Counted from the stretch's first letter, positions 11,087 through 55,847 are shown. The stretch is 64,000 bases of DNA from a virus (IMGVR_UViG_3300031994_000061:21868-85867); one strand, 5' to 3'. Program-made: numbers and translations. The notes: generated from the sequence alone by a model not told the origin.

Positions 11087-12475
11087 ATGAATAAGAAAGT
11101 TCTTGATTTTGTAAATAAACTAGAAGGATACAAAACAGCGATTAAGTCCCTCCATTGGGATTCTGACAGCCTGTCACAGCATGAGCTTTGTGACAAAATA
11201 GCTGATACTATAGCTGAGTTCCAGGATACAGTTTCAGAGGTTGAACAGTCAATTACTGGTAACTTGGATAAGGGTGAACTTAAGCCAGAGGAGTATAAGG
11301 TTACGACGCTGAAAAAATTCGTCGAGGATGTATTAGATTCCGCAAACTCATTCTATAAGAGTATTGAGGATGAAGGAGACACATACACTGGTATGAGAAG
11401 TGACTGTGAGTCATTCCTATCAGATATGCAGAGGAATCTTTACCTTGTCAACTTCACCATGAAGGAAGATTTTAAGAGAAGGTTTTCAAACAGAATTAAT
11501 GAGGGCTTCAGAAAGGAAGAGAATATCAAGACAACCTTCAATGGAACTAAACCAATGACTGAAAAAGGTGTATTCAAGAGAATCAACGACCTCACCAAGA
11601 ACGGTCAGCTTAATACCAGGACGTTCGGTAGTCTTAACGATGTTATGGAGTTCTATGGAAAGATTCTTGGAAACATCGGTTCTCTCAGTACAATAGAGCC
11701 TAACGAATCAACTCATATCGTACAGCTTGATGCAAACAACGGTATGACATATTTTGGTCTACTTAGAGTTAAGGATGAAGGTGGAAAGTGTAAAGCTAGT
11801 ATCACATTCTCTCCTCACAGTGACGAAACACAGCAGCCAGAGCCAGAAATGAATGAACCTACGATTGAGGATGGAAACAACTATGAAATCTATGGCGAGG
11901 GTACTGCATACAGGATGACTGGTGATGAGTTTCGTAGTTTGGTGAAGGAATCTGTAATGAAAATTCTTGAGAGTGACTACCAATATAACCCAATGGATTT
12001 GAACGGCGACAGTGTGAGGGCGCAATATGCTGGTCAGATAGAGCGTGATGAGAACAAGAAGAAAAACTATCAGCTTTTCATGGATGCATTCAAGAAACTT
12101 CGTTACGAGTATGGTGTTAGAATTGGTATGAGTGGCTTCATGAAATATGTGGAAAAAGTGGAAGGCAACTCACTATATGAAAAGATTTGGGAGCATTACG
12201 GTGGTGAATACGAGGAACTTGCAGACCAATATCTACAGAATGTGGTTATGTCGGGTAAGAAGATGGAGAGTAGAGAGCCAACTAGCAACATAGTAGAGAA
12301 GTCAGACATACACATAAAGAAATCCAAGGAAGGTACATTTACAGCAGCAGCCAACAAGCATGGTGAGTCTGTACAGGGGTTTGCTTCCAAGGTATTGAAT
12401 AATAAGGAAAATTACTCCCCTGCAATGGTCAAGAAGGCTAACTTTGCAAGGAATGCTAAAAACTGGAATAAATAA
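11087..12475 (+). CDS. multidomain protein: ferritin/Dps-like (DUF5856-like) N-terminus, cargo-leader motif, C-terminal IHIK...FARNA..W domain
   Basis: LHW...HELCD...QD..E four-helix motif; internal MTGDEFRSLVKESVMKILES; C-terminal DIHIKKSKEGTFT...KKANFARNAKNW. Confidence 0.65.
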   Translation: MNKKVLDFVNKLEGYKTAIKSLHWDSDSLSQHELCDKIADTIAEFQDTVSEVEQSITGNLDKGELKPEEYKVTTLKKFVEDVLDSANSFYKSIEDEGDTYTGMRSDCESFLSDMQRNLYLVNFTMKEDFKRRFSNRINEGFRKEENIKTTFNGTKPMTEKGVFKRINDLTKNGQLNTRTFGSLNDVMEFYGKILGNIGSLSTIEPNESTHIVQLDANNGMTYFGLLRVKDEGGKCKASITFSPHSDETQQPEPEMNEPTIEDGNNYEIYGEGTAYRMTGDEFRSLVKESVMKILESDYQYNPMDLNGDSVRAQYAGQIERDENKKKNYQLFMDAFKKLRYEYGVRIGMSGFMKYVEKVEGNSLYEKIWEHYGGEYEELADQYLQNVVMSGKKMESREPTSNIVEKSDIHIKKSKEGTFTAAANKHGESVQGFASKVLNNKENYSPAMVKKANFARNAKNWNK

Positions 12476-12927
12476 TGAAACAGATTATAAGGTTAACAGA
12501 GAGTGACCTTCACCAGCTTGTGAAGGAATCTGTACAGAAGATATTGAGAGAAAGGTGGTATCCAAGTGAGGAAGATGACATATCAGACTACTCATATGGC
12601 TCTATCATGAAAATGGAAGTCGGTGGTTATCTTGATGAACTTGCTCCAGAGATTATACAAACTCTCCAGTCAGTAAAAGACGAGAATATTGAGTCAGAGC
12701 AGAGCTATGTATCGGTATTGGTTAGAAACGTACAGCTCACACGTGATGAGCATGGGTTTGTAAACATCATAATAGAAGTTGCAGTATCAGCACCTAATAT
12801 GCCTACTAACGACATTGAGGAAGAGGCTAAGGAACAGGTATGGCTTTGGTTTGAAAACAAGACTGGTGAGAGGATAACCAATCTTTCAATAGTTGATGAA
12901 GAAGATGTTTTTGACAGAAGAGGATAA
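12475..12927 (+). CDS. putative head-packaged protein with LTESDL leader
   Basis: N-terminus MKQIIRLTESDLHQLVKESVQKILRE. Confidence 0.75.
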   Translation: MKQIIRLTESDLHQLVKESVQKILRERWYPSEEDDISDYSYGSIMKMEVGGYLDELAPEIIQTLQSVKDENIESEQSYVSVLVRNVQLTRDEHGFVNIIIEVAVSAPNMPTNDIEEEAKEQVWLWFENKTGERITNLSIVDEEDVFDRRG

Positions 12928-13135
12928 AAAGAAAAGAGTTAAGGTCACTCCTTAACTCTTTTTTCTTATCATTACGATTGTATTTACTTTTGTCTTTATA
13001 AGCACGGTTCATAGAAACAAATTGACCGCCACCATAACGTTCAAGCTGTTCGTTACGGCTTATCATTCTCAGTATCTTATACTGTTCAGTGCTCTTAGTT
13101 GGTTTACTTTTTTTACACATCTTGAAATCCTCCAT
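12827..13135 (-). CDS. small basic hypothetical protein (3' end runs through the terminator)
   Basis: Lys/Arg-rich ORF coupled to the upstream phosphoesterase; the last ~45 codons overlap the hairpin and the opposite gene. Confidence 0.4.
   Translation of the reverse strand: MEDFKMCKKSKPTKSTEQYKILRMISRNEQLERYGGGQFVSMNRAYKDKSKYNRNDKKKELRSDLNSFLFILFCQKHLLHQLLKDWLSSHQSCFQTKAIPVP
12932..12966. terminator. bidirectional intrinsic terminator
   Basis: AAAGAGTTAAGG-tcact-CCTTAACTCTTT with A/T tracts, between convergent genes. Confidence 0.85.
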
Positions 13136-13817
13136 CTTCTGTTAATATAAATGCTTTTCTGCAATCAAGGCAAGCCCACGTCTTTGTTATGACTGGGTGT
13201 TCTTCTTGCTGGGAATGACCGAAAACCTGGTAAATACCATCAATATCTTCAGTATTCCCCTTTTCATTGATGTCTGACCACACCATGCTTCCAATTCTTC
13301 CCATACCACCTCTCTCACTAGAAACCTGTGTTAATACCTCGATTCCCCTTTTAATGTCCTTGAGGTGATTTAGGTTTTCAACTGTGAGTTCTCCAATTAA
13401 GTCCTTATGTGCCTTATACCACGAGTTCAACACACCAGCATGTGTGAACAAGTATCTCTGCCCATTTATCATTTCCTCGTATGCCATATCAAACAGGCTC
13501 TTGTGTGAACGAAAATCCTCCTTAATGTGATATGCATTACTTGAATCATATCTTGACCTTGTTCTGAAGTGGTCATCGTAGTAATGGAGGTCGTGGTTTC
13601 CAAGTAGGAGTATCACTTTATCTTTGTTATCCTGCTTGTATTTTATAATATCCTCGAAATTTCTTATTGCATCTTTCCTGGTTATAAATTCCCAAGGGTA
13701 TGGGTCAAGGTAATCACCAAGGAATATTATTTTAGAGCACTCATCAGCGTGTTTTTCTATGGCATCTTTCCAGAATGTACGACCATGTACATCTGGGATT
13801 ATTAATATTTTACTCAT
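13113..13817 (-). CDS. calcineurin-like metallophosphoesterase
   Basis: DVHG, GDYLD, GNHD, THAG, GHS motifs. Confidence 0.9.
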   Translation of the reverse strand: MSKILIIPDVHGRTFWKDAIEKHADECSKIIFLGDYLDPYPWEFITRKDAIRNFEDIIKYKQDNKDKVILLLGNHDLHYYDDHFRTRSRYDSSNAYHIKEDFRSHKSLFDMAYEEMINGQRYLFTHAGVLNSWYKAHKDLIGELTVENLNHLKDIKRGIEVLTQVSSERGGMGRIGSMVWSDINEKGNTEDIDGIYQVFGHSQQEEHPVITKTWACLDCRKAFILTEDGGFQDV

Positions 13818-14181
13818 TTACTAATATGTTTGCTCCAAGTAAGGCGTGCTCCTTGAAATGTAACTCTACCATATCGTAGAAGAAACATATGTCATCATAG
13901 CTTGGCGGTTCTCTAAGTAATATGTGAACCTCATTTATTTTGAAGAGAACGTACCTTATGAAATAACTATCAAGTTCTCTATCGTCTTGCACAGATAGAT
14001 ACCATCCATCATTCTCTATTCTGTCACGCAGAAATTTTAGATACCCATTTTTCTGATAAAAATATGGTTTTATATATCTGTTGGTTCTGAACTCATTATA
14101 GTATGCCTCATATAAGCCATTATGTTTCAGAAACTGTAACGTTAGTTTAGCAATTCTTGATAACTTTACATTTCGTGTCAT
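13810..14181 (-). CDS. hypothetical protein
   Basis: ORF track. Confidence 0.65.
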   Translation of the reverse strand: MTRNVKLSRIAKLTLQFLKHNGLYEAYYNEFRTNRYIKPYFYQKNGYLKFLRDRIENDGWYLSVQDDRELDSYFIRYVLFKINEVHILLREPPSYDDICFFYDMVELHFKEHALLGANILVNE

Positions 14182-14194
14182 ACACCACTACTTT

Positions 14195-14815: not shown

Positions 14816-14819
14816 TTTG

Positions 14820-14851
14820 CAAAGTTATATATTTTTTTTCGAAAAAACAAA
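14820..14851 (-). promoter_or_regulatory. Bacteroidota promoter (TTTG-N20-TAACTTTG)
   Basis: -7 box 14820-14827, -33 box 14848-14851. Confidence 0.8.
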
Positions 14852-14870
14852 TATGTCTAGTTAAATCATG

Positions 14871-15731: not shown

Positions 15732-15733
15732 GA

Positions 15734-24017: not shown

Positions 24018-24299
24018 ATGAAACAGATAATCAGATTAACAGAAAGTGACCTTCACAAGATTGTGAAAGAGGCAGTGAATAAGATACTTAAGGAAGGTGC
24101 TTTTGACAAGTATCCTGGCGAAGACCAGATGAATATAGCACTTGATAGTAATATGAACACCCAGGACGATACTGGGTTTGCGCACGCATATGTCATGGGA
24201 GACCCTATGGCTGAGAAGATGAAGGGTTCTACTATGCGCCACATGCTACATAACCAAATGGGAAACAGAATAGATAGTCCAGATTTTGATATAAAATAA
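24018..24299 (+). CDS. putative head-packaged protein with LTESDL leader
   Basis: MKQIIRLTESDLHKIVKEAVNKILKE; TATTTATA at 23946 and 23994. Confidence 0.75.
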   Translation: MKQIIRLTESDLHKIVKEAVNKILKEGAFDKYPGEDQMNIALDSNMNTQDDTGFAHAYVMGDPMAEKMKGSTMRHMLHNQMGNRIDSPDFDIK

Positions 24300-25972: not shown

Positions 25973-28459
25973 TTACTTGATTTCAATCTGGTCGTTTAAG
26001 CATGACGCACTGAATACGTAGTTTATTGGATATTCATTTGTCAACATGAGGTCTGTAATCTTATCCTCAAGGCTCGTCTGGATAAGTCTGATGATTGGTC
26101 TAGCACCGAATTCCTTAGACTTAAGAGCTTCAGCATGAATGCATGTAACTACATCATCAGTATAAGTTATACTATATTCTAAGCTATTTAATCTCTTATT
26201 AAACTTATTAATTTCCAATTTAACTATATCCTTAAGATTATCATCTGATAAACTATTGAAGTATACTATTTGGTCCAATCTATTTATAAATTCTGGTGTA
26301 AATTTCTTCTTGAGTTCCTTATCAATAATAGACTTCTTATTAGCTTCTTCACTGTTTACAAATCCTACTCCATTTCCAAGCTCTGCTGCCTTTCTAGCAC
26401 CAATGTTGGATGTCATGAGTACGATGACGTTCTTGAAGTTTACAATCTGTCCAGAGCTGTCTGTAAGTCTACCTTCATCGAACAACTGGAGGAATATGTT
26501 ATATACTTCCTGGTCAGCCTTCTCAATCTCATCAAGTAGCAATACACAGTGTTGTTTGTGCTTAACCTGTTCTGTCAGTTGTCCACCATTCTCATATCCC
26601 ACATATCCAGGAGCAGCACCAGTTAGTTTCGCTACTGAGTTTTTCTCTGAATACTCAGACATATCGATTCTGATAAGTGCTTTTTCATCACCGAATATCT
26701 CTTCAGCAAGTTTCTTTGCAATGAGTGTTTTACCAGAACCAGTAGGTCCTACCATCAAAATATTGGCAAGTGTCTTGGACTTATCACCAAGTCCTACCTT
26801 ATTTCTCTTGATAACCCTACAAACACTATCAACAGCCTCATCCTGTCCAATAACGCTCTCCTTAAGAATCTTGTCGATGTTGGCTATCTTGGCTTTCTCA
26901 CTCACTGACAGTTTGCTTACAGGTATCTTAGTCATTTCAGAAACCACATCAGCAATATTGTCTTCAGTGATTTCTATTGTATCTATCTTTAGTTTCTTAA
27001 TATCCCTCTTGTAGTCTGCCATATCAGATGCTAGGACGTTTTCCTCGATTGTAAGGGAGTCTATGAGTTCAAAGTCACCGTTGTTAAGAGCATTGTACTT
27101 TTCTGCCTCTATTTCCCTCATTCTCTTTTTCGTGTTCTGTATCTCTACTGGTTCTCTCTCCAGAAGTGATGTGCTAGCACCAGCGAGGTCGATAATATCA
27201 AACGCTGAGTCTGGAAGGCATCTATCTGTAACGTACCTATCAGCAAGTTCTACAGCTTTCTTAATAGTTTTCTCATCGTATGAAACCCTGTGGAACTGCT
27301 CGTAATATCTTTTATTATTCTCAAGTATTTCTATTGATTCTTCAACAGTATTAGGCTCAATAATAATCTTCTGTAATTTTCTTGATATTGATGTATTATT
27401 CTCGATAGAGTTCCTGTAGTCCTTGAATGTTGTTGTACCTATAATCTTAAGTTTACCCTCTGACAATGCATTACTAATCATTCCAGAAATATCAGTGTCT
27501 TTATCCTTACTTCCATTTTTGAGTACATTGTGCATGTCATCAATGAAAAGGATATATTTATCAGAAGCTTGCAATTCAGTGAATAAACCATTTATTCTCT
27601 CTTCAAACATACCTCTGAAGTGTGTTCCACTTACCAATGCCATTATGTTGAGGAGTACGATTTCCTTACCTTCGAGTATGGATGGTACTTTTCCAGCTTC
27701 TATGAGACTTGCAAGTCCATATACGATTGCTGTCTTACCACAACCTCCACGACCAACCAATACGGCATTATTTTTCTTTCTCCTAGATAATGTTTTTATG
27801 ATTTCCTTGATTTCACTCTCTCTTCCAACAATATCATCAATTTCACCGTTTCTAGCCATCTTGTTGATACTGATGGTGTACTTGGATATGAAATCATCTG
27901 TTAGACTTGAAACAGGCTTTGCATTAACCTGGCTCTTGAGAGGTATTGCAGCCGATTTTGTTTTCAGACTCTTAGGAGATTTACTTTCTGTTTTATCTTT
28001 CTTCGGTACATCACACTTATTCTGTATGAACTCATACTCAAGTCTGAACTTTTCAAACACTTCTGAGTTCTTGAAACCATATTCCTTATTTAATACAGCT
28101 AACAGGACATGTTCTGTACCTATTTCTACATTCTTCAACTTATCTCTTTCTTTCTTGGCACATTCAAGAAGCCTAACAAGCTCATCACTGAATTTTATCT
28201 CTCCAACCAAACTTACTTGAGGGTTAACATGAGTTTCAATTGCAGACTCATATACTTTCTTAAGTTCCTCAAGATTGTTTGACATGAGACAATTGTCAAG
28301 AATAAGATTTGCATGACAGTTCCTTATGTCCAGTATTGACAGAATAAGATACTCTGGAGTCAGTATGTCCGTAGGGAACATGCCAGGAAGTGTGTTAGAC
28401 ATATACTCCAACACATCATTCAATTCTAAAGTGTAAGTGTTATCTTTCTTTCTACTCAT
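25973..28459 (-). CDS. clpC: ClpC/ClpB-family AAA+ chaperone
   Basis: Clp-N repeats (TPEYLILSIL, GTEHVLLAVL), GRGGCGKT, RCLPDSAFDIID, short UVR-like middle domain, GPTGSGKT, PGYVGY, LLLDEIEKA, VGF loop, FGARP. Confidence 0.92.
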   Translation of the reverse strand: MSRKKDNTYTLELNDVLEYMSNTLPGMFPTDILTPEYLILSILDIRNCHANLILDNCLMSNNLEELKKVYESAIETHVNPQVSLVGEIKFSDELVRLLECAKKERDKLKNVEIGTEHVLLAVLNKEYGFKNSEVFEKFRLEYEFIQNKCDVPKKDKTESKSPKSLKTKSAAIPLKSQVNAKPVSSLTDDFISKYTISINKMARNGEIDDIVGRESEIKEIIKTLSRRKKNNAVLVGRGGCGKTAIVYGLASLIEAGKVPSILEGKEIVLLNIMALVSGTHFRGMFEERINGLFTELQASDKYILFIDDMHNVLKNGSKDKDTDISGMISNALSEGKLKIIGTTTFKDYRNSIENNTSISRKLQKIIIEPNTVEESIEILENNKRYYEQFHRVSYDEKTIKKAVELADRYVTDRCLPDSAFDIIDLAGASTSLLEREPVEIQNTKKRMREIEAEKYNALNNGDFELIDSLTIEENVLASDMADYKRDIKKLKIDTIEITEDNIADVVSEMTKIPVSKLSVSEKAKIANIDKILKESVIGQDEAVDSVCRVIKRNKVGLGDKSKTLANILMVGPTGSGKTLIAKKLAEEIFGDEKALIRIDMSEYSEKNSVAKLTGAAPGYVGYENGGQLTEQVKHKQHCVLLLDEIEKADQEVYNIFLQLFDEGRLTDSSGQIVNFKNVIVLMTSNIGARKAAELGNGVGFVNSEEANKKSIIDKELKKKFTPEFINRLDQIVYFNSLSDDNLKDIVKLEINKFNKRLNSLEYSITYTDDVVTCIHAEALKSKEFGARPIIRLIQTSLEDKITDLMLTNEYPINYVFSASCLNDQIEIK

Positions 28460-43397: not shown

Positions 43398-45278
43398 ATG
43401 ATATACGACAGACAGGAAATGGCCATAGATTATGCAACTTGTTACGCTGACAAGTCCAGAATCACATTCATAGAGAAATATTTTAGTACATTCAATGCTA
43501 TAAAGGGTAAGAAAACACAGTTTCACTGTTTTCCAAGACAGAGAGCGTTCTTGAAAGCCCTTTCGGAGAATAGAAATGTAGTAGCTGTTAAGCCAAGACA
43601 GTGTGGTATCACAACCCTATCAAGTGCTTGGGCAGCAGCCCAGTGTGCATTTGCCCCAAAGGATGCGCCAGAAACAATCCTGTGTATCGCAAACAAACTT
43701 GAGCAGGCACAGGAAATTATTATCAAGGTTAGGGATTTTCTTGAACAAGTACCAAGGTGGTATTGGGGTGACGAATATTTTTCTCCAGACCCTAATTCCG
43801 ATAAAAACATCACATCAATTTTCTTGAAAGATGCAAAGGGTGAGTTGAAACTGTTTAACGGTTGCAGGGTTATAGCACGTGCATCAGGTCCTAATGCATC
43901 TCGTGGTATCTCGGCTGTATCTGTATTGATTCTTGACGAGGCTGCATTCATTGAAGAAGGTGTGGCTGCATTTACCACAGCTGCTGCTACAATGGCTTCT
44001 AACCCTAATTCTAAGACCGTCATGGTGTCAACGCCTAACGGTAAGGATGAGTTGTACTACAACACCTATAGACAGGCTCTGAGCCACGAAAACAACTTTG
44101 TGGCTGTACAGTTCCGTTGGTATCAAGACCCACGTTTCAACAAGTATCTCGTATGGAAGAAGAAAAACGAGGAGACTGGAGAATGGATGTTTGACCAAGA
44201 CCCTATTGTTGACCATGAGGGAAGTGTAAAGTACGACGAGGAAAGATGGGCTAGGCTTGAACATGATGGTTGGAAACCAGATGCACCTTGGTACGACGAA
44301 ATGTGCAAACAGTTCAACAATGATTCAATGAAGATTGCACAGGAGCTTGATGTATCATTCATGGGTTCTAACGATAACGTTATTGCACCAGAGTTTATTG
44401 AAATGCAGGAAAAGCTTAACGTTAGAGAACCACTTGAAGATTTCAAAGACCCACTCGTAGAAGAAACTTGGTTCTGGAAGCTTCCTATTGAAGGACACAG
44501 GTACATATGCGCTGTTGACCCTTCGAGGGGTACAGCAGCCGATAGAACAGCCATAGAGGTCATTGATATGGATGGTAGAGATGAGAATGGAATACCAATC
44601 ATAGAACAGGTCGCTGAATATGTAGGAAAGAAACTTGGTGATGACATTGGTGCAATAGCATACCAGTATGCTACCATGTATAATGATGCATTCGTTGTTG
44701 TAGATGCCACTGGTGGACAGGGTGATGCTGCAATAATAACCATGCTTCAGATGGGTTATAAGAACATGTACTATGAGGATATGAACCAGAAGACATATAT
44801 GTTGCAAAGGGCAACAAAGATATATGATAGTTATACAGATAAACTTCCTGGTTTCCATTTCCAGGGTAACAGATACCCTGTATTAGCTAACTTTGCTGGA
44901 CTGGTTAGAAACAATGAGTTTAAGATAAGGTCAGCAAGGGTTATCAATGAGCTTGATACATGGATATTCAAGGGAGATAATGCTAGAATGGACCACATGG
45001 ACGGTGCTCACGATGACACCATAACATCACTTGCTATGGGACTTTTCGTTATGCAATACTCATTCAACAGGTTGCAGAGCACTATAAAGAAGGATAAAGC
45101 AATACTTAACGCATATATGATGACAAACTCATTTAAGGTTAAAAAACCTCAGATGGGAAATGGAAGGGATATGTCACCTGGTATTGGTTTACCATTTTAT
45201 AAACAGGATAAGATGAAGAACTCATATAGCAGTACACAATATGGAAACTGTATGTGGTTATTTGGTGGCGTAAAGTAA
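43398..45278 (+). CDS. terL: terminase large subunit (T4 gp17-like)
   Basis: KPRQCGITT, LILDEAAFI, MVSTPNG, AQELDVSF, AVDPSRG, HDDTI. Confidence 0.92.
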   Translation: MIYDRQEMAIDYATCYADKSRITFIEKYFSTFNAIKGKKTQFHCFPRQRAFLKALSENRNVVAVKPRQCGITTLSSAWAAAQCAFAPKDAPETILCIANKLEQAQEIIIKVRDFLEQVPRWYWGDEYFSPDPNSDKNITSIFLKDAKGELKLFNGCRVIARASGPNASRGISAVSVLILDEAAFIEEGVAAFTTAAATMASNPNSKTVMVSTPNGKDELYYNTYRQALSHENNFVAVQFRWYQDPRFNKYLVWKKKNEETGEWMFDQDPIVDHEGSVKYDEERWARLEHDGWKPDAPWYDEMCKQFNNDSMKIAQELDVSFMGSNDNVIAPEFIEMQEKLNVREPLEDFKDPLVEETWFWKLPIEGHRYICAVDPSRGTAADRTAIEVIDMDGRDENGIPIIEQVAEYVGKKLGDDIGAIAYQYATMYNDAFVVVDATGGQGDAAIITMLQMGYKNMYYEDMNQKTYMLQRATKIYDSYTDKLPGFHFQGNRYPVLANFAGLVRNNEFKIRSARVINELDTWIFKGDNARMDHMDGAHDDTITSLAMGLFVMQYSFNRLQSTIKKDKAILNAYMMTNSFKVKKPQMGNGRDMSPGIGLPFYKQDKMKNSYSSTQYGNCMWLFGGVK

Positions 45279-46207: not shown

Positions 46208-48262
46208 ATGGCTAAAAAAAGAAATACAGTATTTCAAGCTTTGGATAAAGCCATCACTGGTAACTGGAAATCTCCAGCAGAGCCTATAGTGCCACACGTA
46301 AACACGTATGACTTGAGTGGTTCTGATAATAAGATTCTCTATAGAACCAATGATAAGGAAGACTACTTACAGAAGAAGCTTGAACTTCAACAGGATAAGT
46401 TTCTTAAGGAAAGATGGGTTAAGGCTAATGTAAACCTATCGGTTTCTGCATATGCTGGTTTGAACAATATAAAGTTGATGTACCGTGATGCTGACTTGAT
46501 GGATGCATTCCCAGAAATAGGTGCAGCTCTTGATATTGTATCTGAGGAGAGCACCATTGTGAACGATAAGGGAATGGTGGTTAATGTCTACTCGAAATCG
46601 GACAGAATCAGAAGTATACTTGAGGACTTATTCGTAAACAGGCTTAATATACAACTTACAGGACAAATGATTATCCGTGCAATGTGTAAGTACGGAAACC
46701 AGTTCATGCTCCTTGACATCGACCACAAGAATGGTGTAAAGGGATGGAAGCAGATGCCAGTATTCAATGTTGAGAGACTTGAAAACGGTATATTGAATCC
46801 TTATGGTGCTGGTATGTCAATAGCTGTTAACGGTGCTGACATCAAGGATTCTGATATGTCAACACAATTTATATGGATTGATGACAACCAAGCGCAAATA
46901 CCATTCCGTGACTGGCAGGTTGCGCACTTCAGACTACTTACTAACTCGCTTTATTTACCTTATGGTGTAAGTTATCTGAATGCAGCACGTAGGCACTGGA
47001 GAATGCTCTCGCTCATGGAGGACATGATGCTTATCTATCGTCTTGAGCGTTCAATTGAAAGACGTGTATATAAGATATTCGTTGGTGCTATTGATGATGC
47101 TGACGTTCCAGCTTACATTGAGCAGATAGCAAATGAGTTTAAGAGAACGCCAATCATCGACCCAATAACAGGACAGGTTGACCTTAGGAAGAACATATTG
47201 TCAGTTGACCAGGATATCTTCATCCCAGTTCGTGATGAGAATGCTCCTACCCCAATTGATACACTTTCAGCAGCACAGAATATGACAGCATTGGATGACA
47301 TCAAGTTCGTGCAGAACAAGGTGCTTACAGCCCTTAGAATACCTAGGTCATTCTTGAATTTCGATGAGGCAACTGGCGAAGGTAAGAACCTTGCACTTAT
47401 GGATATAAGGTTTACAAGAACAGTTAACAGGATACAGCAGGCATTCTTGATGGAACTTACAAAGGTTGCAACCATACATCTATTTTTGCTTGGATTTGAT
47501 GATGAATTAACTAATTTCACATTATCAATGAATAATCCATCAACACAGGCAGAGCAGCTTGAGATTGAGAATATGCAGAAGAAGATTGATGCTGTCAGAG
47601 ACGCTGTTTCAGACCCTGGTAACGGTCTTCCAGTTATGTCACAGACACGTGCGTTGAAGCAGATTATGAAGTGGTCTGACAAGGAAATTAAAGAGAATCT
47701 TGAAGAGATTCGTCTTGAGAAGGGCATCTCTGCTGAACTTGAGAAGACAGCACAGATTATCAAGAAGACTGGTATCTTCGATACTGTTGATAGAATTTAC
47801 GGAGAACCTGGTGCTGAATACATGGATGACCAGCAAGGAGGTATGCCTGGACAAGGCGGTGCTGGAGGCATGGGCGGTGGAGGTAGCATGGGAGCACCAC
47901 CACCTCCTCCAACTGATTTCGGAAGTGAAATGGATGGTCTTGGAACTCCTGGTGCAGATGAAAATGGAGACATCAACGGACAGGAAGGGTCAATGCCTAC
48001 TGGAGAAATGGGTCCTGACCAAACAGGGCAGACACTTGAAGGTATTGACAGGAAGAAGAAGGTTATCAGTGAACAGTCAAACCTTTTCGAACAGTATCTC
48101 TCATCACTTACAGGACATACAAGTTCACCAAAGGAGACGAAGTACGAAAGAGCTAAGGTGTATGACAGCAACTCACTACTGATAAATGAGGAGTTTGACA
48201 AGATGATTAATGCCCTCGGAAAATTTGTTGAGGATGATGATATTTATAAAGAAAATGAATAA
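46208..48262 (+). CDS. portal protein (T4 gp20-like)
   Basis: MDAFPEIGAALD, YRLERSIERRVYKI, DIFIPVR, DDIKF...ALRIP. Confidence 0.92.
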   Translation: MAKKRNTVFQALDKAITGNWKSPAEPIVPHVNTYDLSGSDNKILYRTNDKEDYLQKKLELQQDKFLKERWVKANVNLSVSAYAGLNNIKLMYRDADLMDAFPEIGAALDIVSEESTIVNDKGMVVNVYSKSDRIRSILEDLFVNRLNIQLTGQMIIRAMCKYGNQFMLLDIDHKNGVKGWKQMPVFNVERLENGILNPYGAGMSIAVNGADIKDSDMSTQFIWIDDNQAQIPFRDWQVAHFRLLTNSLYLPYGVSYLNAARRHWRMLSLMEDMMLIYRLERSIERRVYKIFVGAIDDADVPAYIEQIANEFKRTPIIDPITGQVDLRKNILSVDQDIFIPVRDENAPTPIDTLSAAQNMTALDDIKFVQNKVLTALRIPRSFLNFDEATGEGKNLALMDIRFTRTVNRIQQAFLMELTKVATIHLFLLGFDDELTNFTLSMNNPSTQAEQLEIENMQKKIDAVRDAVSDPGNGLPVMSQTRALKQIMKWSDKEIKENLEEIRLEKGISAELEKTAQIIKKTGIFDTVDRIYGEPGAEYMDDQQGGMPGQGGAGGMGGGGSMGAPPPPPTDFGSEMDGLGTPGADENGDINGQEGSMPTGEMGPDQTGQTLEGIDRKKKVISEQSNLFEQYLSSLTGHTSSPKETKYERAKVYDSNSLLINEEFDKMINALGKFVEDDDIYKENE

Positions 48263-48264
48263 CG

Positions 48265-49197
48265 ATGAATACCAGTAAATATAATGAAGAGTTTTCAAAC
48301 TATATCAGTATAATGAAGGAAGCTCTTGAGAGGGAGAATTTCGACGCATATGATGCAGCTAAAAAGATGCTTGATGAGTCTATAGATGAGCGCAGACATG
48401 AAAAGGAACTTGAGGCTGAGCTTGATACTACTAACTTTGGTATCCTACATCACATATTTGAGGAGAGATTACCAGAGCTGTTTAAGACTAATAAAAAGGT
48501 TGTAAAGGATGTTATGAACCTTATAAGGGAGGATAGAAATCTTTCAAGTGAATTTAGTTTCTATAATGCAATAAAACAGTACAAGGGTAAAATCACTGAG
48601 GTACTAGACTCATCCATGTTCGCAGCAAAGCTTACTGAGGCTATATTCAATGACCTTGACAAAGATAGTGTGATTAAGTCAAATGCAAAGCTTAGGAAGA
48701 TAATGAAAGAAAATAATATTATTCCTACAGACTTCATCGATGACGAGTTAAGGAAACTTTACGAATGTGGTCATGTGCTACTAACAAAGAAACGTGGTAT
48801 AGGAAACATAGGTCTTATAGCTGAGAGTGCTAAGAGTGTGTGCGAATACATGGATAGACACAAGGATGATATACTTAGAGAAGATGTTAATCCAGAACAA
48901 CTCATTGAGAATTTTGAGAACAAGTTAAGGGATACACTTACAGAGTCAGAAATGGCTTTTGTACAGGAAATCACTGACTGGAGAAGTCCTATCGCTGAAC
49001 AGAGAAAGGAGAAACTTTTCAACAAGTTCAAGAACGAGTGTATAAGTAAAATCAATGAAATGCTCAGTGAAGATGCTGGAAACGTTGAACTTGAGTCACT
49101 TAAGAAACAGATTGAGGAACAGAAGTTTAATAAAGAATCTATTGTCAAGGACATTGCAAAACTCCTAGAAATAAGAGACATATTGTTAGATAAGTAA
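48265..49197 (+). CDS. conserved hypothetical head-module protein
   Basis: helical 310-aa ORF after the portal; TATTTATA at 48241. Confidence 0.75.
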   Translation: MNTSKYNEEFSNYISIMKEALERENFDAYDAAKKMLDESIDERRHEKELEAELDTTNFGILHHIFEERLPELFKTNKKVVKDVMNLIREDRNLSSEFSFYNAIKQYKGKITEVLDSSMFAAKLTEAIFNDLDKDSVIKSNAKLRKIMKENNIIPTDFIDDELRKLYECGHVLLTKKRGIGNIGLIAESAKSVCEYMDRHKDDILREDVNPEQLIENFENKLRDTLTESEMAFVQEITDWRSPIAEQRKEKLFNKFKNECISKINEMLSEDAGNVELESLKKQIEEQKFNKESIVKDIAKLLEIRDILLDK

Positions 49198-49756: not shown

Positions 49757-49954
49757 ATGAGTAAGACAATAAAAATATCAGAAGACAGATTTAACAAGGC
49801 ACTTAGGAAAATTGTAGCAGAGGAATTCGAAGGTGCTGATAACAATTACGAGCCATTCAAGTCACAGATTGAAGACCATGATGAGGGTATTGTAGGAGAG
49901 CCTACAGACCCTACCGTATATGATAAAAACCAGGGAATACCAGGAAACGTTTAA
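49757..49954 (+). CDS. small protein with cargo leader
   Basis: MSKTIKISEDRFNKALRKIVAEE. Confidence 0.7.
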   Translation: MSKTIKISEDRFNKALRKIVAEEFEGADNNYEPFKSQIEDHDEGIVGEPTDPTVYDKNQGIPGNV

Positions 49955-49956
49955 TT

Positions 49957-50374: not shown

Positions 50375-50377
50375 TAT

Positions 50378-50647
50378 TTAATCCCTACCATAAAGTTCTA
50401 CGCTTGCTGCCTGTGCCTTTTTGAGGCATATTATAGCCTGCATCACATTGTCTTTTACAATTTGTTCTGTTGAACTTGGTGATGGACTTGCAAATGGAAT
50501 CCATCCACTTACAGTTAATTCAGTTAAGGCATCTATAATGTGTTGAAGTTGCCTTGTACTTGACCCTTCTTTTAATACTCTCTTTACAGATTCACTTACA
50601 ATGTTACGAAGGTCATCCTGTGTTAGTTGTATTGGTTGTTTATTCAT
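50378..50647 (-). CDS. small protein with cargo leader
   Basis: MNKQPIQLTQDDLRNIVSESVKRVLKEG. Confidence 0.75.
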   Translation of the reverse strand: MNKQPIQLTQDDLRNIVSESVKRVLKEGSSTRQLQHIIDALTELTVSGWIPFASPSPSSTEQIVKDNVMQAIICLKKAQAASVELYGRD

Positions 50648-51333
50648 GAGTTCAATATATTTTTAATCTTATTTATTTTCTCATTCAATGCTGGCTTTAC
50701 ATCGTTTGATGTGTTAGCTTCTACGTATTGCTGTAGCTCTTCTGGTTCTCCTATCCATGCACCTGGTGTTGATGGGTCTGATACAACGTCCCAGCATATA
50801 AGTTCGAAGTCTTCTCCTACGATATATTGTCCTAATTTTTGCTCAACAGAGCCAACACCTCTTGAGGATACACCAATTTTAATTCCGTTTAGAAGCAGGT
50901 TTGCCATCTGGTCTCCACGTGTTGATACAATACCGTATTTTCTAAATCCGTATGATGTATTAATCATACACTTTCCGACAAGTGTTCTACCCTCCCAGTG
51001 AAGTTCTGTTATATTGATTGCGATTCTGTCTAGGTCTATTGTTGATTCTGCTGGGTGGTTAAGTTCACCTATTGCGTTACTGTTAACAATTTTCTTTTGA
51101 TAAAGTTCAACCTGTTTCTTAAGTACATTCTCTGGGTATATTCTACCGTTTGCGTTCTTAATACCGAACTTCTGGAATACAGCATCAACAATAAATGGAT
51201 GTGGTACGTGCCATTCCCCATCAATACCCTCTGTAATACTCTGAGGGTTCTTAATGTACATGTATCCATCCCTCTCTATGAGGATACCATGACCTGTCTT
51301 ACCTTCCTTTATTATTTCAAGTTCCTTTTTCAT
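50644..51333 (-). CDS. prohead core protein protease (T4 gp21-like)
   Basis: KNANGRIYP, GELNHP, IGVSSRGVGS, WDVVSDPSTPGA; start MKKELE at 51333 after minus-strand TATTTATA at 51351-51358. Confidence 0.92.
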   Translation of the reverse strand: MKKELEIIKEGKTGHGILIERDGYMYIKNPQSITEGIDGEWHVPHPFIVDAVFQKFGIKNANGRIYPENVLKKQVELYQKKIVNSNAIGELNHPAESTIDLDRIAINITELHWEGRTLVGKCMINTSYGFRKYGIVSTRGDQMANLLLNGIKIGVSSRGVGSVEQKLGQYIVGEDFELICWDVVSDPSTPGAWIGEPEELQQYVEANTSNDVKPALNEKINKIKNILNS

Positions 51334-51508
51334 TACTAGTAATTTTTTATTATAAATATTTCGCACTCTCCAAATATTTATATAATAGACATATAATCAC
51401 AGGTATGGAATATGACTGTAAATCAACATTTTTTGAGTGGTTTACAAAGTTTTTTTGTATTTGTGGTATATTTATATTTAAAATAATAACGTATTTAAAC
51501 TATTTTCT

Positions 51509-53065
51509 ATGAACGGAAAGATTAGAAGCAAAGTAGTAAGGGAATCTTTATTGGATTACAATACACTCGCAAATTCTTTGAAGGAAAATACGGAGAGCGC
51601 AGTCAAGACTCTTCTTGATGAGGCTGTGCGTGATACATATGCCAAGTTGTTATCTGAGGGTATCGACGATAACGAGGAGGAGTACAAAGAAGATGAAGTG
51701 GAAGATACACAAGATTCTGGTATTTCAAACGATGCTGAGGACGATGCAATATCTACTGAAGTAGTAGACGATGCTGACGCTGGTATGGAATCCGACAATG
51801 TTGATGATGCAGCAGCTGAAAGTGGCGACACCGAAGGTGGTGCAGAACCAGCAGAGGAAGGTGAAGGTGATGAATGGGCAGAGTTTGATAAGTATAAAGT
51901 ATCAGACGATGAGTATGACTTCTCTAATGCGGAAGACGAGGAAATCGTAAAGGTTTACAAACTAATGAAGAACGATGACCAGATTCTAGTCCACAAGGAT
52001 GATGATAAGGTTAAAATTCAAGACAACGAAACTGGAGCTGAATACCTAATCGACCTTGGTGGTGACGATGAGGCAGCTGGTGTAGCTGCTGTTGAACCAG
52101 GAGCAGAAGGGGCAGACGATTTCGGAGCTGAGGGCGACGATATGGGTGCTGCTGATGATTTCGGTGCAGAAGATGATTTAGAAAATAACATTGATGACGA
52201 TATGAACGAATCAACAGAAAGAATGTTTGAGCTTGTACTGGAGTATGACTCAAATGTAGGATACACTGACAATTATCAGAAGAAAGACGTAATGACAAAC
52301 CCAGGCATGTCAGAGCCAGGTAAGAATGTAAACGACTGGGATGCTGGTGTACCAAAGGGCGATGCAAAGCCTTGGTCTGGCTATCCAGGTAAGAAAAATA
52401 AAGCAGACAAGCCATTCAATGATGGTAAGGGTAAGCAGGTAGAAGAGGAAACTGAAGGTGGCGAGGAACTTGCAGAGGGTGCAGTAAACGAGCTTAAGAC
52501 AAATGCTGAGCACGCTGCAAACAACGGTAGCACTTCAAGAACCGACGGTCCTAACAACCCACGTAGACGTACTGGACGTAGTTTCCATACAGCTCAGAAG
52601 GGACAGGAAAAGGGTACTGGTGACAATGCTTACACAGCTGGTGATGGCAACGTTACTGTAACAACAGATGTTAAGGTTGAAAACATTATGAAGAGGGTTA
52701 ACAAGACACTTAAGGAGAACAAGGAACTTAAGGATACTCTTACAACCGTAATGACATCACTTAAGGAAGCTGCTGTAACTAATCATAATCTTGCACAGAT
52801 TATCAAGCTTATCTCTGAGAACTCTACCACACAGGATGAGAAGAAGGAAATCATTGGAAGGTTTGCTAAGGAGGCTAAGACTATTGAAGCTTCAAAGGGT
52901 TTGTATGAGTCTATTAGCCAGGACTTGAAAAAGTCACACAAGATGAATATCACTGAGGATAAGAACCTTACAGTTGAGAGTTCAAAGAAAATCAACGAGA
53001 CTCCAATTTACAAGTCGCAGGACATCATGGAATCTCTTGACCTTATGCACAGAATGATGAAATAA
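51509..53065 (+). CDS. prohead core scaffold protein (T4 gp22-like position)
   Basis: acidic, coiled-coil C-terminus, directly upstream of the MCP; TATTTATA at 51469. Confidence 0.75.
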   Translation: MNGKIRSKVVRESLLDYNTLANSLKENTESAVKTLLDEAVRDTYAKLLSEGIDDNEEEYKEDEVEDTQDSGISNDAEDDAISTEVVDDADAGMESDNVDDAAAESGDTEGGAEPAEEGEGDEWAEFDKYKVSDDEYDFSNAEDEEIVKVYKLMKNDDQILVHKDDDKVKIQDNETGAEYLIDLGGDDEAAGVAAVEPGAEGADDFGAEGDDMGAADDFGAEDDLENNIDDDMNESTERMFELVLEYDSNVGYTDNYQKKDVMTNPGMSEPGKNVNDWDAGVPKGDAKPWSGYPGKKNKADKPFNDGKGKQVEEETEGGEELAEGAVNELKTNAEHAANNGSTSRTDGPNNPRRRTGRSFHTAQKGQEKGTGDNAYTAGDGNVTVTTDVKVENIMKRVNKTLKENKELKDTLTTVMTSLKEAAVTNHNLAQIIKLISENSTTQDEKKEIIGRFAKEAKTIEASKGLYESISQDLKKSHKMNITEDKNLTVESSKKINETPIYKSQDIMESLDLMHRMMK

Positions 53066-53133
53066 TATAACTTTTTAAGTTTTGTGTATATTTATAATAA
53101 AAAATAACTTAAGTTAAAACTTCATTTATTTAT

Positions 53134-55170
53134 ATGAAAGAATTTTTATCTAGTGGCGTAGTTGGTAATATTGAGTACAACGCCCAGAAACAGATACGTG
53201 AGAGCATTCAGAACCGTTGGGACCAGCTCGGATTTACTGAGGGTCTTCCAGAGGGTATCAAGGAGAATGTTGCTACGTTGTATGAGAATGAGGCTAAGCA
53301 CTTGATTTATGAGGCTACAGCTTCTGACAATAGCGGTTCATTCGAGACTGTGGTATTCCCTATCATCCGTAGGGTATTCAGCAGACTTCTTGCTAATGAC
53401 ATCGTTTCAGTACAGGCTATGAACCTTCCTGTAGGTAAGTTGTTCTTCATCCTCCCTGTTACTTCAGAGAGAGAGTGGGAGCTTCCAGCAGAGATGACTG
53501 GCGACACTGAGCCTGGTGATATTGTAGACGGAACAACTGGTCGTCACCTTGGTCTTATGGGTTATGACAGAGTTAACCGTAACAAGGAAGGACGTGTTGA
53601 GCCACGTTACTATCTCCCAGACGAGACAATCAATGAGCTTCAGAATGCATGGTACATCCCAGTTCTTAGCGACGAGGATACCTATGACACATTCGACGCT
53701 GCTAAGGAAGCTGCTATCGCAGCTGGTCTTAATCCAACAGCTATTCGTAGAGTAGGACCAGAGGTTACTCAGTACTTCCAGAAGAGTCTTTACGACTTGT
53801 TCTACAATGACTTCTTGTATGACAACTCAAAGGGTAAGGTTACTATTAAGGTTGGTGAGGCTATCCCAGTATTCTTGACCCCTGGTGGTGTTCGTCCATT
53901 CGGTGCTGACAACTTGAATCAGTACTTCCAGAGTGGATTCGACGGAACTATCCGTAACGTCATCCTTGAGATTGATGGTTTCTCTTCATTCAACGCTTCT
54001 AAGTTGACTGGTCCTGACGGAAACGAAATGGACACTGAAGAGTTCCTTGCTTCATTGAAGGTTATCACACAGAAGGCTATTGCAGCTCAGAACGCTCCTG
54101 GTTCAGAGGACGTTAAGACTTCTGCTTTCAGAAAGTTTGAGTCTGTTCCATTCAGAGTAGTTACTCAGAAGTATGGTAAGGGTATCGTAGAGTACGGTGC
54201 TGCTTGCGACGCAGAGGGTAAGATGTATATCGAGCTTGACCTTGCTAAGCCAGTTATCCAGCAGGCTGGAACAATCGATGGCTACATCGGTGTTGCTGCT
54301 TCAGAGCTTGACGCTGCAATTGTTAAGAGTGGAAGCACTATTGACTACGAGGCAACTAAGGAGAATATCAAGTCTTTGTTCAAGATTGCTTGGGCACAGT
54401 ATGATTCTCTTGAGCTTGAGACTGAAATCGGTGAGGTTTCATTCAAGTTGGATTCAGTAACTGTATCAGTTGTAGAGAGAAAGCTTCGTGCTACCTGGTC
54501 TCCAGAGCTTGCACAGGACGTTTCTGCATTCCACAACATCGACGCAGAGGCTGAGTTGACAGCTATCCTTTCAGAGCAGATTGCTGCTGAGATTGACCGT
54601 GAGATTCTTCGTGACCTTCGTAAGGGTGCACCTTGGCAGGCACGTTGGGATGTCAATGGTTGGAGAAGAATGGCTGCATTCTCTACAAACTACACTCAGA
54701 AGGACTGGAATCAAGAGTTGATGACTAAGATTAACCAGATTTCTGCACAGATTCACAAGTCTACACTTCGTGGTGGTGCTAACTTCATCGTAGTATCTTC
54801 AGAGATTAGCGCATTGTTCGATAACTTGGAGTTCTTCCACGTATCAGATGCTTCAGCAGAGAGCGACCAGTACAACATGGGTATTGAGAAGATTGGTTCA
54901 CTTAGTGGACGTTACACTGTTTATCGTGACCCATATTCTCCACACTGGTCAATTATCATTGGTCACAAGGGTAAGTCACTTCTTGATACTGGTTATATCT
55001 ATGCACCATATGTACCAATGCAGTTGACTCCTACAATGTACAACCCATTCAACTTTGCACCAGTAAAGGGTATCATGACTCGTTACGCTAAGAAGATGGT
55101 TAACAACCGTTACTATGGACACGTTCGTGTTGACGGTCTTGTACACTGGTCAATCAATGAGTTCAGATAA
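53134..55170 (+). CDS. major capsid protein (T4 gp23-like) with a large insertion
   Basis: IIRRVF...SVQAMNLPVG, RKLRATWSPELAQD, DAEAELTAILSEQIAAEIDREI, YAPYVP, GIMTRYA. Confidence 0.95.
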   Translation: MKEFLSSGVVGNIEYNAQKQIRESIQNRWDQLGFTEGLPEGIKENVATLYENEAKHLIYEATASDNSGSFETVVFPIIRRVFSRLLANDIVSVQAMNLPVGKLFFILPVTSEREWELPAEMTGDTEPGDIVDGTTGRHLGLMGYDRVNRNKEGRVEPRYYLPDETINELQNAWYIPVLSDEDTYDTFDAAKEAAIAAGLNPTAIRRVGPEVTQYFQKSLYDLFYNDFLYDNSKGKVTIKVGEAIPVFLTPGGVRPFGADNLNQYFQSGFDGTIRNVILEIDGFSSFNASKLTGPDGNEMDTEEFLASLKVITQKAIAAQNAPGSEDVKTSAFRKFESVPFRVVTQKYGKGIVEYGAACDAEGKMYIELDLAKPVIQQAGTIDGYIGVAASELDAAIVKSGSTIDYEATKENIKSLFKIAWAQYDSLELETEIGEVSFKLDSVTVSVVERKLRATWSPELAQDVSAFHNIDAEAELTAILSEQIAAEIDREILRDLRKGAPWQARWDVNGWRRMAAFSTNYTQKDWNQELMTKINQISAQIHKSTLRGGANFIVVSSEISALFDNLEFFHVSDASAESDQYNMGIEKIGSLSGRYTVYRDPYSPHWSIIIGHKGKSLLDTGYIYAPYVPMQLTPTMYNPFNFAPVKGIMTRYAKKMVNNRYYGHVRVDGLVHWSINEFR

Positions 55171-55202
55171 ATCACTGACTGAAAAAATTTCACTCTATAT
55201 AA

Positions 55203-55236
55203 AAAACCTTGGGTACGAGTTACCCAGGGTTTTTTT
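55203..55236 (+). terminator. intrinsic terminator after the MCP
   Basis: AACCTTGGGTA-cgagt-TACCCAGGGTT plus T tract. Confidence 0.8.
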
Positions 55237-55274
55237 GTTGTAAATAAAATATTTATAATAAAATTATATATATT

Positions 55275-55847
55275 ATGCCAAGTAAAAGTAAATCACAACA
55301 GAGATTCTTCGGTATGGTTGATGCCTATAAGAAAGGCGAGTTGAAGAATCCAAGTAATAAGATAAAGAAAGCAGCAAATGGAATGTCCATGAAAGATGTT
55401 AAGGACTTTGCTGAGACAAAGCATGATGGTTTACCAGAAACAGTAGAAAATACCATTAAATCTAATTTATCAGACAAAGCTATAAAGTTAACAGAAAATG
55501 AATTGCATACTCTTGTGAAAGAATCTGTAATGATAATACTAAACGAGGCTTATAATGATATGAATTTTAATAATGACGTTAACGACGATGAACTTAGTGA
55601 TGAATTAGAGGCTGTTGGCGCAATAGGAGAAGCTACACCAGAGGAAATAAAAGGTTGGGAAGAAGACCTTTGGATTAATGTTAATAAAACATTACAGAAC
55701 GCTAATTATCTCTTCAATAAGACAAGGGATGAAAAATATGCTAAGATTGCTGAAATAATTGGAAATTCATTAGAACTTTTTCCAGAAGATGCAGAGAACA
55801 TATATATGGGAATAGATTATGACCCAAATGCTGGTTATGGTGGATAA
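55275..55847 (+). CDS. DUF3008-like N-terminal domain plus internal cargo leader
   Basis: MPSKSKSQQRFFG...DFAETKHDGLPE; IKLTENELHTLVKESVMIILNE. Confidence 0.65.
   Translation: MPSKSKSQQRFFGMVDAYKKGELKNPSNKIKKAANGMSMKDVKDFAETKHDGLPETVENTIKSNLSDKAIKLTENELHTLVKESVMIILNEAYNDMNFNNDVNDDELSDELEAVGAIGEATPEEIKGWEEDLWINVNKTLQNANYLFNKTRDEKYAKIAEIIGNSLELFPEDAENIYMGIDYDPNAGYGG

Follow-up and report, generated by a model that had tools for sequence, protein, structure and literature searches.

A 26-residue leader on unrelated proteins of an uncultured rumen jumbo phage is a probable capsid-targeting sequence

Why do otherwise unrelated proteins of an uncultured rumen jumbo phage carry the same short leader? 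The window, a stretch of 64,000 nt, is part of a fragment of a phage of ~300-400 kb. From this stretch, the original prediction had described a modular leader in many unrelated genes, and had proposed that it brings diverse enzymes into the phage head. All the leader peptides that it quoted are present in the sequence at the positions it gave, and six copies of a 26-residue leader, consensus MKKIIRLTESDLHRIVKESVNKILKE, are solid. Genes 12475, 24018, 49957 and 50647(-) carry the leader at the N-terminus, and genes 55275 and 11087 carry it internally:

12475-12927, plus strand: 150-aa protein, leader at residues 1-26 (nt 12475-12552), then an acidic linker and an alpha/beta domain; HMM 62-66 bits
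24018-24299, plus strand: 93-aa protein, N-terminal leader; HMM 66-69 bits
49957-50361, plus strand: 134-aa protein in the head module, divergent N-terminal leader and Cys-rich C-terminus; HMM 31-35 bits
50378-50647, minus strand: 89-aa protein, N-terminal leader, ATGA overlap with the prohead protease gene; HMM 47-50 bits
55275-55847, plus strand: 190-aa protein, DUF3008 at residues 4-56 (PF11450 2.7e-6), internal leader at residues 68-93 (nt ~55476-55553, 41 bits), then a C-terminal part
11087-12475, plus strand: 462-aa protein, Dps/ferritin-like N-domain (DUF5856 6.7e-4, below the Pfam cut-off; phrog_858 1.1e-4), then an internal, more divergent leader at residues ~276-295 (nt 11906-11974; seed HMM 44 bits, broad HMM 12.7 bits)

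A strict regular expression found 5 leader copies, against 0.02 in shuffled sequence. The original prediction had proposed a search with a leader HMM, and in this search the six leaders scored 41-51 bits with the seed HMM while everything else in the 85.9-kb record scored 11 bits or less. The N-terminal 45 residues of the 81 called genes were scanned with a broader HMM to grade seven weaker forms, of which two came out as marginal, two as borderline and three as unsupported. Those with a described product are as follows:

49757-49954, plus strand: 65-aa acidic protein whose N-terminus resembles a decayed leader, marginal (N-terminus scan E = 0.032)
55819-56598, plus strand: PRTase-like protein (PF00156 2.5e-6) with the second half of the leader only, marginal (N-terminal scan E = 0.002, full-length scan E = 0.036)
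35218-39225: ART-PolyVal protein (PF18760 4.5e-17), leader match E = 0.079 among the 81 N-termini

In the same scan of 81 N-termini, gene 24844(-) matched at E = 0.073 and genes 32785, 42084 and 45290 at E > 1.5. The idea of a leader spread over unrelated genes stands with the six solid copies and is unsupported for the last three. The 49757 protein also has weak tblastn matches (29-38% identity) in the loci of the closest relatives.

In the leader, a short extended stretch (I-I-R-L-T-E) leads into an amphipathic helix of 17 residues with L-x-E at its end. L7, T8 and E9 are conserved at 89, 91 and 99%, and L24 and E26 at 83 and 96%, so that each leader has two near-invariant [I/L]-x-E sites. 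This is the motif at which the T4 protease gp21 cuts. Among residues that are identical between leader copies, ~40 to 100% (typically about half) are differently encoded. Since codons differ where residues agree, the copies have been kept by selection at the protein level and not by recent DNA copying; the codon comparison rules out recent gene conversion between them.

An AlphaFold2 model of the 12475 protein has a helix at residues 9-26 with low pLDDT, a disordered linker at 28-36 and a domain at 41-147 with pLDDT ~75-93. In this model the leader is a free helix that precedes, with the disordered linker, a confidently predicted domain. Foldseek of the model returned generic ferredoxin-like matches and nothing else, and a homology search with the protein returned two full-length relatives, the remaining matches being to the leader only. 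The single-sequence model of the 55275 protein (pLDDT 49) was too poor to use. The 49957 protein has counterparts by position in two relatives' loci, L003 and L013, which share its leader variant and the sequence directly after it; the L013 counterpart is of equal length (a 144-residue stop-to-stop frame in both). Matches to the 50378-50647(-) protein with 42-66% identity lie in the loci flanking the major capsid protein gene of seven relatives, and all seven contain the motif.

In a library of 1.84 billion proteins the leader matched 4,345 protein clusters, 148 of them at E <= 1e-10. Together with the unrelated cargo and the detachable helix of the AlphaFold2 model, this bears out the claim that the leader is modular. 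Related leader loci were located by a degenerate DNA pattern, and genomes hold 6-17 copies each. Of 192 tagged proteins, 174 have a first copy that starts no later than residue 8. Library leaders are usually N-terminal and often present in two or three copies per protein, and internal and C-terminal copies occur too. The cargo modules are small (median 81 residues), fast-evolving and hypervariable. That near-invariant leaders stand on unrelated cargo, two or three times in one protein, indicates that the leader itself is under selection. Neither Pfam nor PHROG has a family for it, no published paper was found to contain the leader motif strings or to tie rumen jumbo phages to capsid targeting, and cultured phages, T4 relatives included, lack it, the sole match being a weak one in an uncultured 484-kb phage.

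The original prediction had the leader fused to ART, NTase, PRTase and ferritin-like enzymes. The Dps/ferritin-like protein stands, and it is, with the DUF3008 protein, the only case of a solid leader joined to a recognisable domain; the rest is mostly unsupported (the ART-PolyVal match at E = 0.079 and the PRTase half motif at E = 0.002 are both marginal). In Pfam scans, 149 library matches and 10 long tagged proteins of relatives contained almost no known domain, which is why diverse enzymes were given up as the cargo.

What machinery could read such a leader? The head module of the phage is of T4 type, with a portal, an S77 protease, a scaffold-like protein and a gp23-type capsid protein:

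46208-48262, plus strand: gp20-type portal protein (PF07230 1.5e-86)
48265-49197, plus strand: 310-aa protein next after the portal, richest of the window's proteins in [IL]xE, candidate degraded core protein
50644-51333, minus strand: prohead protease of the S77 (T4 gp21) family (PF03420 2.5e-25; phrog_207 6e-42)
51509-53065, plus strand: scaffold-like protein between the protease and capsid genes, with helical ends and an acidic middle
53134-55170, plus strand: gp23-type major capsid protein (PF07068 7e-72)

The phage encodes the expected gp21-type protease, a member of the S77 family with its catalytic motifs: the protein is 34% identical to T4 gp21, with GELNHP and GVSSRG (His and Ser) and the Asp region aligned. 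Conserved [IL]-x-E sites occur in the N-terminal ~60 residues of the capsid protein, one of them being L-I-Y-E60 just ahead of A-T-A-S; among 20 relatives Glu60 is invariant and the residue two before it is I or L. For comparison, T4 gp23 is cut after L-T-E65 and gp24 after L-R-E10 (residue numbers from PMC9958956). The 51509 protein corresponds in position to T4 gene 22, is 27-73% identical to proteins in most relatives' loci, and has 11 [IL]xE sites where 6.0 are expected. The 48265 protein has 17 against 7.7 expected, a number reached in 0 of 400 shuffles. Megablast of the head region against GenBank phages returned nothing.

Half of the six leader genes belong to the head module. Three copies are no farther than 3.5 kb from the capsid gene, and one of them, 50378-50647(-), is coupled to the protease, its start overlapping the protease stop (ATGA) in an arrangement for translational coupling. 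Three complete relatives have 38 leader copies between them, 11 at a distance of up to 10 kb from the capsid gene, where ~2.1 would be expected (Poisson p ~1e-5).

The leader genes also share a promoter-like motif, TATTTATA, with the head genes. It occurs 25 times against 6.15 expected, and 17 of the 25 copies stand within 80 nt upstream of a co-oriented start, including those of the terminase, portal, protease, scaffold-like and capsid genes:

10654-10661, plus strand: TATTTATA, heading the unit 10669-12927
23994: TATTTATA, 16 nt before the start of 24018
25238(-) and 51351(-): further TATTTATA copies
55250: TATTTATA, 17 nt before the start of 55275

Units headed by the exact 8-mer hold five of the six strong leader genes, and the sixth, 49957, is in a unit whose head motif, TATTTATT upstream of 49757, differs from the 8-mer at one position. 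These counts agree with the earlier claim that leader genes lie in units headed by the late motif, and place the genes in a putative late or structural promoter class together with the terminase and head genes.

If tagged proteins enter the head, their cargo should carry a mark of it, since avoidance of [IL]xE is expected of proteins that share a prohead with a gp21-type protease. With the leader masked, [I/L]-x-E was counted in the cargo of tagged proteins and, within this group of phages, in 219 proteins that lack the tag. For the cargo, 128 sites were found where 191.6 would be expected (ratio 0.67, bootstrap CI 0.56-0.78), whereas the untagged proteins were enriched, with a ratio of 1.41 (CI 1.30-1.52). 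Control patterns showed no difference between cargo and untagged proteins ([IL]xD, 1.22 and 1.17; Ex[IL], 1.29 and 1.24; VxE, 1.0 and 0.87; [FYW]xE, 1.06 and 1.09). The likely core proteins 48265 and 51509 showed the opposite trend. The avoidance is an aggregate signal, invisible in the six window proteins taken singly (counts for single window genes have too little statistical power), and the capsid and portal proteins, which are exposed to the same protease, showed none. This avoidance in the cargo is evidence new to this analysis. Because tagged proteins avoid [IL]xE outside the leader, loading into the capsid, as in T4, is the most likely role of the tag.

We therefore regard it as probable that the leader is a capsid-targeting, protease-processed sequence and thereby a lengthened form of the capsid targeting sequence (CTS) of T4. 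Serving as a capsid address, it would attach its protein to the prohead core during assembly, and three candidate partners for this are the scaffold-like 51509 protein, the 48265 protein and the protease. Cleavage by the S77 protease at the conserved L-T-E site, the L-x-E site or both would follow, and the small, site-poor, fast-evolving cargo would stay in the head beside the DNA, from where it would probably reach the Prevotellaceae host by ejection, like the T4 internal proteins. Docking, cutting, retention in the head and ejection, with any anti-defence role of the tagged proteins, are what we infer from these patterns. In the relatives' capsid-gene loci no head-module gene was clearly confined to relatives with the leader, and the comparison therefore names no partner protein.

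At the sequence level, the level at which our case is made, the features in common with T4 are a shared N-terminal leader, an [I/L]-x-E site in the leader and a gp21-type protease, and the site-poor cargo is indirect evidence that the tagged proteins survive beside the protease. To our knowledge, T4 has no internal or C-terminal CTS copies, whereas the leader occurs in both positions. T4 internal proteins are diverse and have only the CTS in common (PMC3012670). As here, the CTS of IPI, IPII, IPIII and Alt, which is removed by gp21, is an N-terminal leader common to diverse proteins and has a hydrophobic-x-Glu site for an S77 protease, part of the genes are found away from the head cluster, and the cargo is expected to evolve fast (PMC3012670; PMC5694885). 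Unlike the CTS of 10-20 residues (PMC5694885), the leader has 26 residues with no alignable similarity to it, contains two or three conserved sites, is often repeated two or three times per protein, and is far more numerous. The long propeptides of SPN3US/phiKZ-type giant phages (e.g. gp53/gp54, with identical first 15 residues) likewise combine a conserved multi-site N-terminus with a diverged remainder, but their proteases are of S80 type with an A/S/G-x-E rule, the propeptides often exceed 100 residues, and the shared N-termini belong to paralogs and not to unrelated cargo. Uncleaved head proteins without the protease motif are known from these phages (PMC5694885; PMC10052503); in SPN3US, 23 of 42 uncleaved head proteins have no site that fits the motif of their own protease (PMC10052503). 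Polyvalent proteins (ART-PolyVal with partner domains) are thought to be delivered with the DNA, and the window encodes one (35218-39225), but unlike the tagged proteins it has a weak leader match and no site avoidance (18 [IL]xE sites, 16.8 expected). Encapsulin cargo-loading peptides, too, are short portable addresses, at either end of unrelated (including ferritin-like) proteins, that lead into the interior of an HK97-fold shell; they are not removed by a protease, have no sequence similarity to the leader, and serve cellular compartments, not virions.

The tagged genes beside the portal, protease and scaffold-like genes, the small size and mild acidity of their products and the protease sites in the leader itself would also suit expendable pieces of the prohead core or scaffold, built in and then digested like T4 gp67/gp68. 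We consider this unlikely. Proteins destined for digestion would be expected to have many sites, which is true of the untagged 48265 and 51509 proteins, yet the cargo is two-fold poorer in [IL]xE than the untagged controls; the many sites along the whole protein that mark degraded core proteins of the gp22/gp67/gp68 kind are absent from it. In addition, the cargo is hypervariable and leader copies are scattered far from the head genes. Alternatively, internal and C-terminal copies could mean that the motif is a docking helix, functional at any position, for a hub outside the capsid, for example an adaptor or degron for the ClpC-like unfoldase (25973-28459), whose gene is near 24018 and 24844 and occurs in 21 of 24 related records searched. 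This we hold to be somewhat less probable still: relative G036 and fragments G042, G044, G047 and G048 have the ClpC-like gene and no leader, which weakens the idea of a ClpC tag, and neither the specific [IL]xE avoidance nor the clustering near the capsid gene would be explained. G036 (complete, 345 kb) also keeps a gp23-type capsid gene (56% identical) and the same head module (locus L032), so the head machinery does not require the tag; no other shared leader of at least 12 residues was found in it, a threshold above a T4-length tag of 10.

Leader genes occur outside phages as well, singly in Prevotellaceae chromosomes without any S77 protease; two isolate genomes with a chromosomal copy have no protease. 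Both there and in some phage contigs, a leader gene and an IS1595 transposase gene are arranged tail-to-tail, enclosed by 36-nt inverted repeats. Such an arrangement, and the two isolates, could indicate a family of transposon passengers whose N-terminus was inherited from one ancestor or serves IS1595 and has no targeting role. We give this very little credence, because a transposase or remnant is present at only ~13 of 92 phage leader loci, this record has no trace of the transposase or the inverted repeats, and near-invariant leaders on unrelated cargo, in two or three copies per protein, argue against it.

Several observations point against the leader reading as a whole: the internal and C-terminal copies, the absence of the leader from G036, chromosomal copies without an S77 protease, avoidance visible only in aggregate, and the lack of avoidance in capsid and portal proteins.

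A further possibility, which we put forward as a long shot, is that the leader is a portable capsid address traded horizontally, with IS1595 moving tagged genes between jumbo phages and Prevotellaceae chromosomes. Chromosomal copies, if they kept a phage late-type promoter, could be switched on by an infecting jumbo phage, and their products could board its capsids. If so, a transposon or host could place its own protein in progeny virions as a stowaway or saboteur.

If the leader is indeed a capsid-targeting sequence, a simple tag would list the proteins that are packed into, and probably injected from, the heads of uncultured rumen jumbo phages, and would be the second cleavable packaging tag from nature with which foreign proteins could be loaded into large capsids. 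Site avoidance can be tested in any phage with a head protease of known specificity, so that head-resident proteins may be predicted from sequence. For the phages of the rumen, thousands of small proteins without a family would become prime candidates for anti-defence functions against Prevotellaceae.

The window covers positions 21868-85867 of a viral record 85.9 kb long and, judged by its sequence, carries a T4-type head module:

43398-45278: large terminase
46208-48262: gp20-type portal (PF07230, 1.5e-86)
50644-51333, minus strand: S77 prohead protease (PF03420, 2.5e-25)
51509-53065: scaffold-like protein, acidic and helical
53134-55170: gp23-type capsid protein (PF07068, 7e-72)

The protease shares 34% identity with T4 gp21, to which the regions of its His, Ser and Asp motifs can be aligned. 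Contigs related by their capsid protein measure 295-412 kb, and some have terminal repeats, so the record is a jumbo-phage fragment. The closest cultured capsid proteins, those of Flavobacterium phage immuto and Microcystis phage Mel-JY01, are about 38-41% identical. A thymidylate synthase gene (31038-32174, plus strand; PF00303, 3.9e-89) lies in a stretch whose other genes look late or structural.

The original prediction described a leader shared by otherwise unrelated proteins, and every peptide it quoted was found in the window. A strict pattern identified 5 leader copies vs 0.02 in shuffles, and a seed HMM run over the whole record returned six copies at 41-51 bits, with all else at 11 bits or less:

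12475: N-terminal copy
24018: N-terminal copy
49957: N-terminal copy
50647, minus strand: N-terminal copy
55275: internal copy, after a DUF3008 domain
11087: internal copy, after a Dps-like domain

The DUF3008 domain (PF11450; 55275-55445), directly upstream of its internal copy, is common to several PHROG families of unknown function, in larger proteins. When the weaker forms also proposed were scored on the N-terminal 45 residues from 81 called genes, 55819 (E = 0.002) and 49757 (E = 0.032) came out as marginal, 24844(-) (E = 0.073) and 35218 (E = 0.079) as borderline, and those at 32785, 42084 and 45290 had no support (E > 1.5). Where two leader copies have the same residue, they encode it by different codons at roughly 40 to 100% of such positions (typically about half), so selection at the protein level maintains the leader, and recent DNA copying is rejected as the source of the likeness.

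Searching a library of 1.84 billion proteins with a six-row leader profile gave 4,345 cluster representatives at E <= 0.001, and 148 of these reached E <= 1e-10. The consensus is MKKIIRLTESDLHRIVKESVNKILKE; conservation is 89/91/99% for the three residues of L-T-E (positions 7-9) and 83/96% for the Leu and Glu of L-x-E (positions 24-26). The first copy was N-terminal in 174 of 192 tagged proteins, 92 of which had two to four copies; some carried C-terminal copies. Two or three copies were also common among the matching library proteins P0001-P0150, where internal copies, often preceded by Met and a recurring E-S-K-N-M stretch, would fit an in-frame fusion of adjacent leader genes through their spacer. 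The leader is confined to relatives with a capsid protein at least about 66% identical. We found no Pfam or PHROG family and no published paper for the motif, and no cultured phage carries it.

Complete relatives contain 6-17 leader copies each. In three of them, copies are concentrated around the capsid gene: 11 of 38 are at most 10 kb away vs about 2.1 expected (p about 1e-5). The late-type promoter-like motif TATTTATA occurred 25 times vs 6.2 expected, 17 times within 80 nt upstream of a co-oriented start, all main head genes among them; the minus strand has 46 of the 81 called genes, yet only two units headed by TATTTATA. The leader genes had been placed in such late units, and the exact 8-mer indeed heads the units of five of the six solid ones, while 49957 has only a one-mismatch form, which lies upstream of 49757 and heads the unit containing 49957.

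T4 gp21 cuts after [I/L]-x-Glu. In the T4 record, residues 63-65 of gp23 are L-T-E and residues 8-10 of gp24 are L-R-E. The stretches removed are 65 residues in gp23 and 10 in gp24 (PMC9958956). [I/L]-x-E is conserved at three sites in the N-terminus of the window's capsid protein (53134-53320). The third is L-I-Y-E60 followed by A-T-A-S, and at about 60 residues in, [I/L]-x-E followed by Ala or Ser is invariant across 20 relatives. Glu60 probably marks a T4-like maturation cut.

If tagged proteins share the prohead with a gp21-like enzyme and must survive, they are expected to avoid [IL]xE. We compared the cargo of tagged proteins, with the leader masked, with 219 untagged proteins of at most 350 aa from the same phage group. 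The observed/expected ratio of [IL]xE was 0.67 in cargo (128 observed, 191.6 expected; CI 0.56-0.78) and 1.41 in untagged proteins (CI 1.30-1.52).

Observed/expected ratios of other motifs (cargo; untagged)
[IL]xD: 1.22; 1.17
Ex[IL]: 1.29; 1.24
[IL]xK: 1.28; 1.12
[IL]xQ: 1.23; 1.26
VxE: 1.0; 0.87
[FYW]xE: 1.06; 1.09

Both data sources showed the depletion, and so did Ile and Leu counted apart; it is an aggregate signal, invisible in the six window proteins taken singly. Likely core proteins trend in the opposite direction. The 48265-49197 protein (310 aa, helical, just after the portal) has 17 [IL]xE vs 7.7 expected, is more strongly enriched than any other protein of the window, and is a candidate prohead core protein chopped by the protease; the scaffold-like 51509 protein has 11 sites vs 6.0 expected. 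In phage SPN3US, 23 of 42 uncleaved head proteins were measured to be without a site fitting its protease's motif (PMC10052503).

A Pfam scan of 149 library matches and 10 long tagged proteins from relatives found next to nothing, and almost all tagged proteins are unassigned in function. Cargo modules have a median of 81 residues and are Asp-rich and Ile- and Leu-poor. In the AlphaFold2 model of the 12475 protein, residues 9-26 form a free helix of low confidence, residues 28-36 an acidic disordered linker, and residues 41-147 a confidently predicted alpha/beta domain of generic fold. The prediction that the tag is fused to diverse enzymes was not borne out, since two enzyme-like proteins encoded in the window have marginal leader matches:

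35218-39225: late ART-PolyVal protein, 1,335 aa (PF18760, 4.5e-17), with a weakly leader-like N-terminus and no site avoidance
55819: PRTase-like protein

A strict DNA pattern of the leader matched 20 stretches in prokaryote genomes, mostly rumen Prevotellaceae or other Bacteroidales MAGs. Two of the genomes, those of Segatella bryantii DSM 11371 and Prevotella sp. MA2016, come from cultured isolates, and both lack an S77 protease. Seven genomes checked (both isolates and five MAGs) had one or two leader genes each. The leader gene adjoins an IS1595 transposase or its remnant in 11 of the 20 loci, in four of them tail-to-tail with stop codons overlapping or abutting. At one locus (L209:448-2980), 36-nt inverted repeats surround a 2.5-kb unit of small ORFs, leader gene and transposase, the last two tail-to-tail; the element also occurs at L208, L219, L223, L227, L138 and L104, and is present in Prevotellaceae chromosomes, the two isolates included, and in jumbo-phage contigs. 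About 13 of 92 jumbo-phage loci have leader genes flanked by the same transposase, full-length or as a short remnant; none was found in this 85.9-kb record.

These associations would fit tagged genes that are a mere family of transposon passengers. Tagged proteins might also be disposable core pieces, or the leader might dock them onto a hub outside the capsid, such as a ClpC-like unfoldase, for which there is a gene:

25973-28459, minus strand: ClpC-like gene, 828 aa

Of 24 related jumbo-phage records searched, 21 have it, leader-less ones among them. Each of these three readings explains some features, but none accounts for the specific site avoidance and the head-gene linkage together. We consider it reasonably likely that the leader is a long variant of the T4 capsid targeting sequence, which would dock proteins into the prohead core and then be cut at its conserved Glu residues. 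T4 internal proteins are diverse apart from that sequence (PMC3012670; PMC5694885), as tagged proteins are outside the leader. Weighing against this reading or restricting it are the internal and C-terminal copies, for which T4 offers no counterpart, the aggregate nature of the site avoidance, and a sister group that shares the head machinery but is without the tag: the complete 345-kb relative G036 (loci L174-L191; gp23-type capsid gene 56% identical) has the same head module around its capsid gene (locus L032) and a ClpC-like gene, and carries neither a copy of the leader nor another shared N-terminal leader of at least 12 residues.

The presence of leader genes with IS1595 in Prevotellaceae chromosomes points to Prevotellaceae as the hosts of these phages, and the evidence suggests that leader-cargo genes travel between phage and host genomes on an insertion element.
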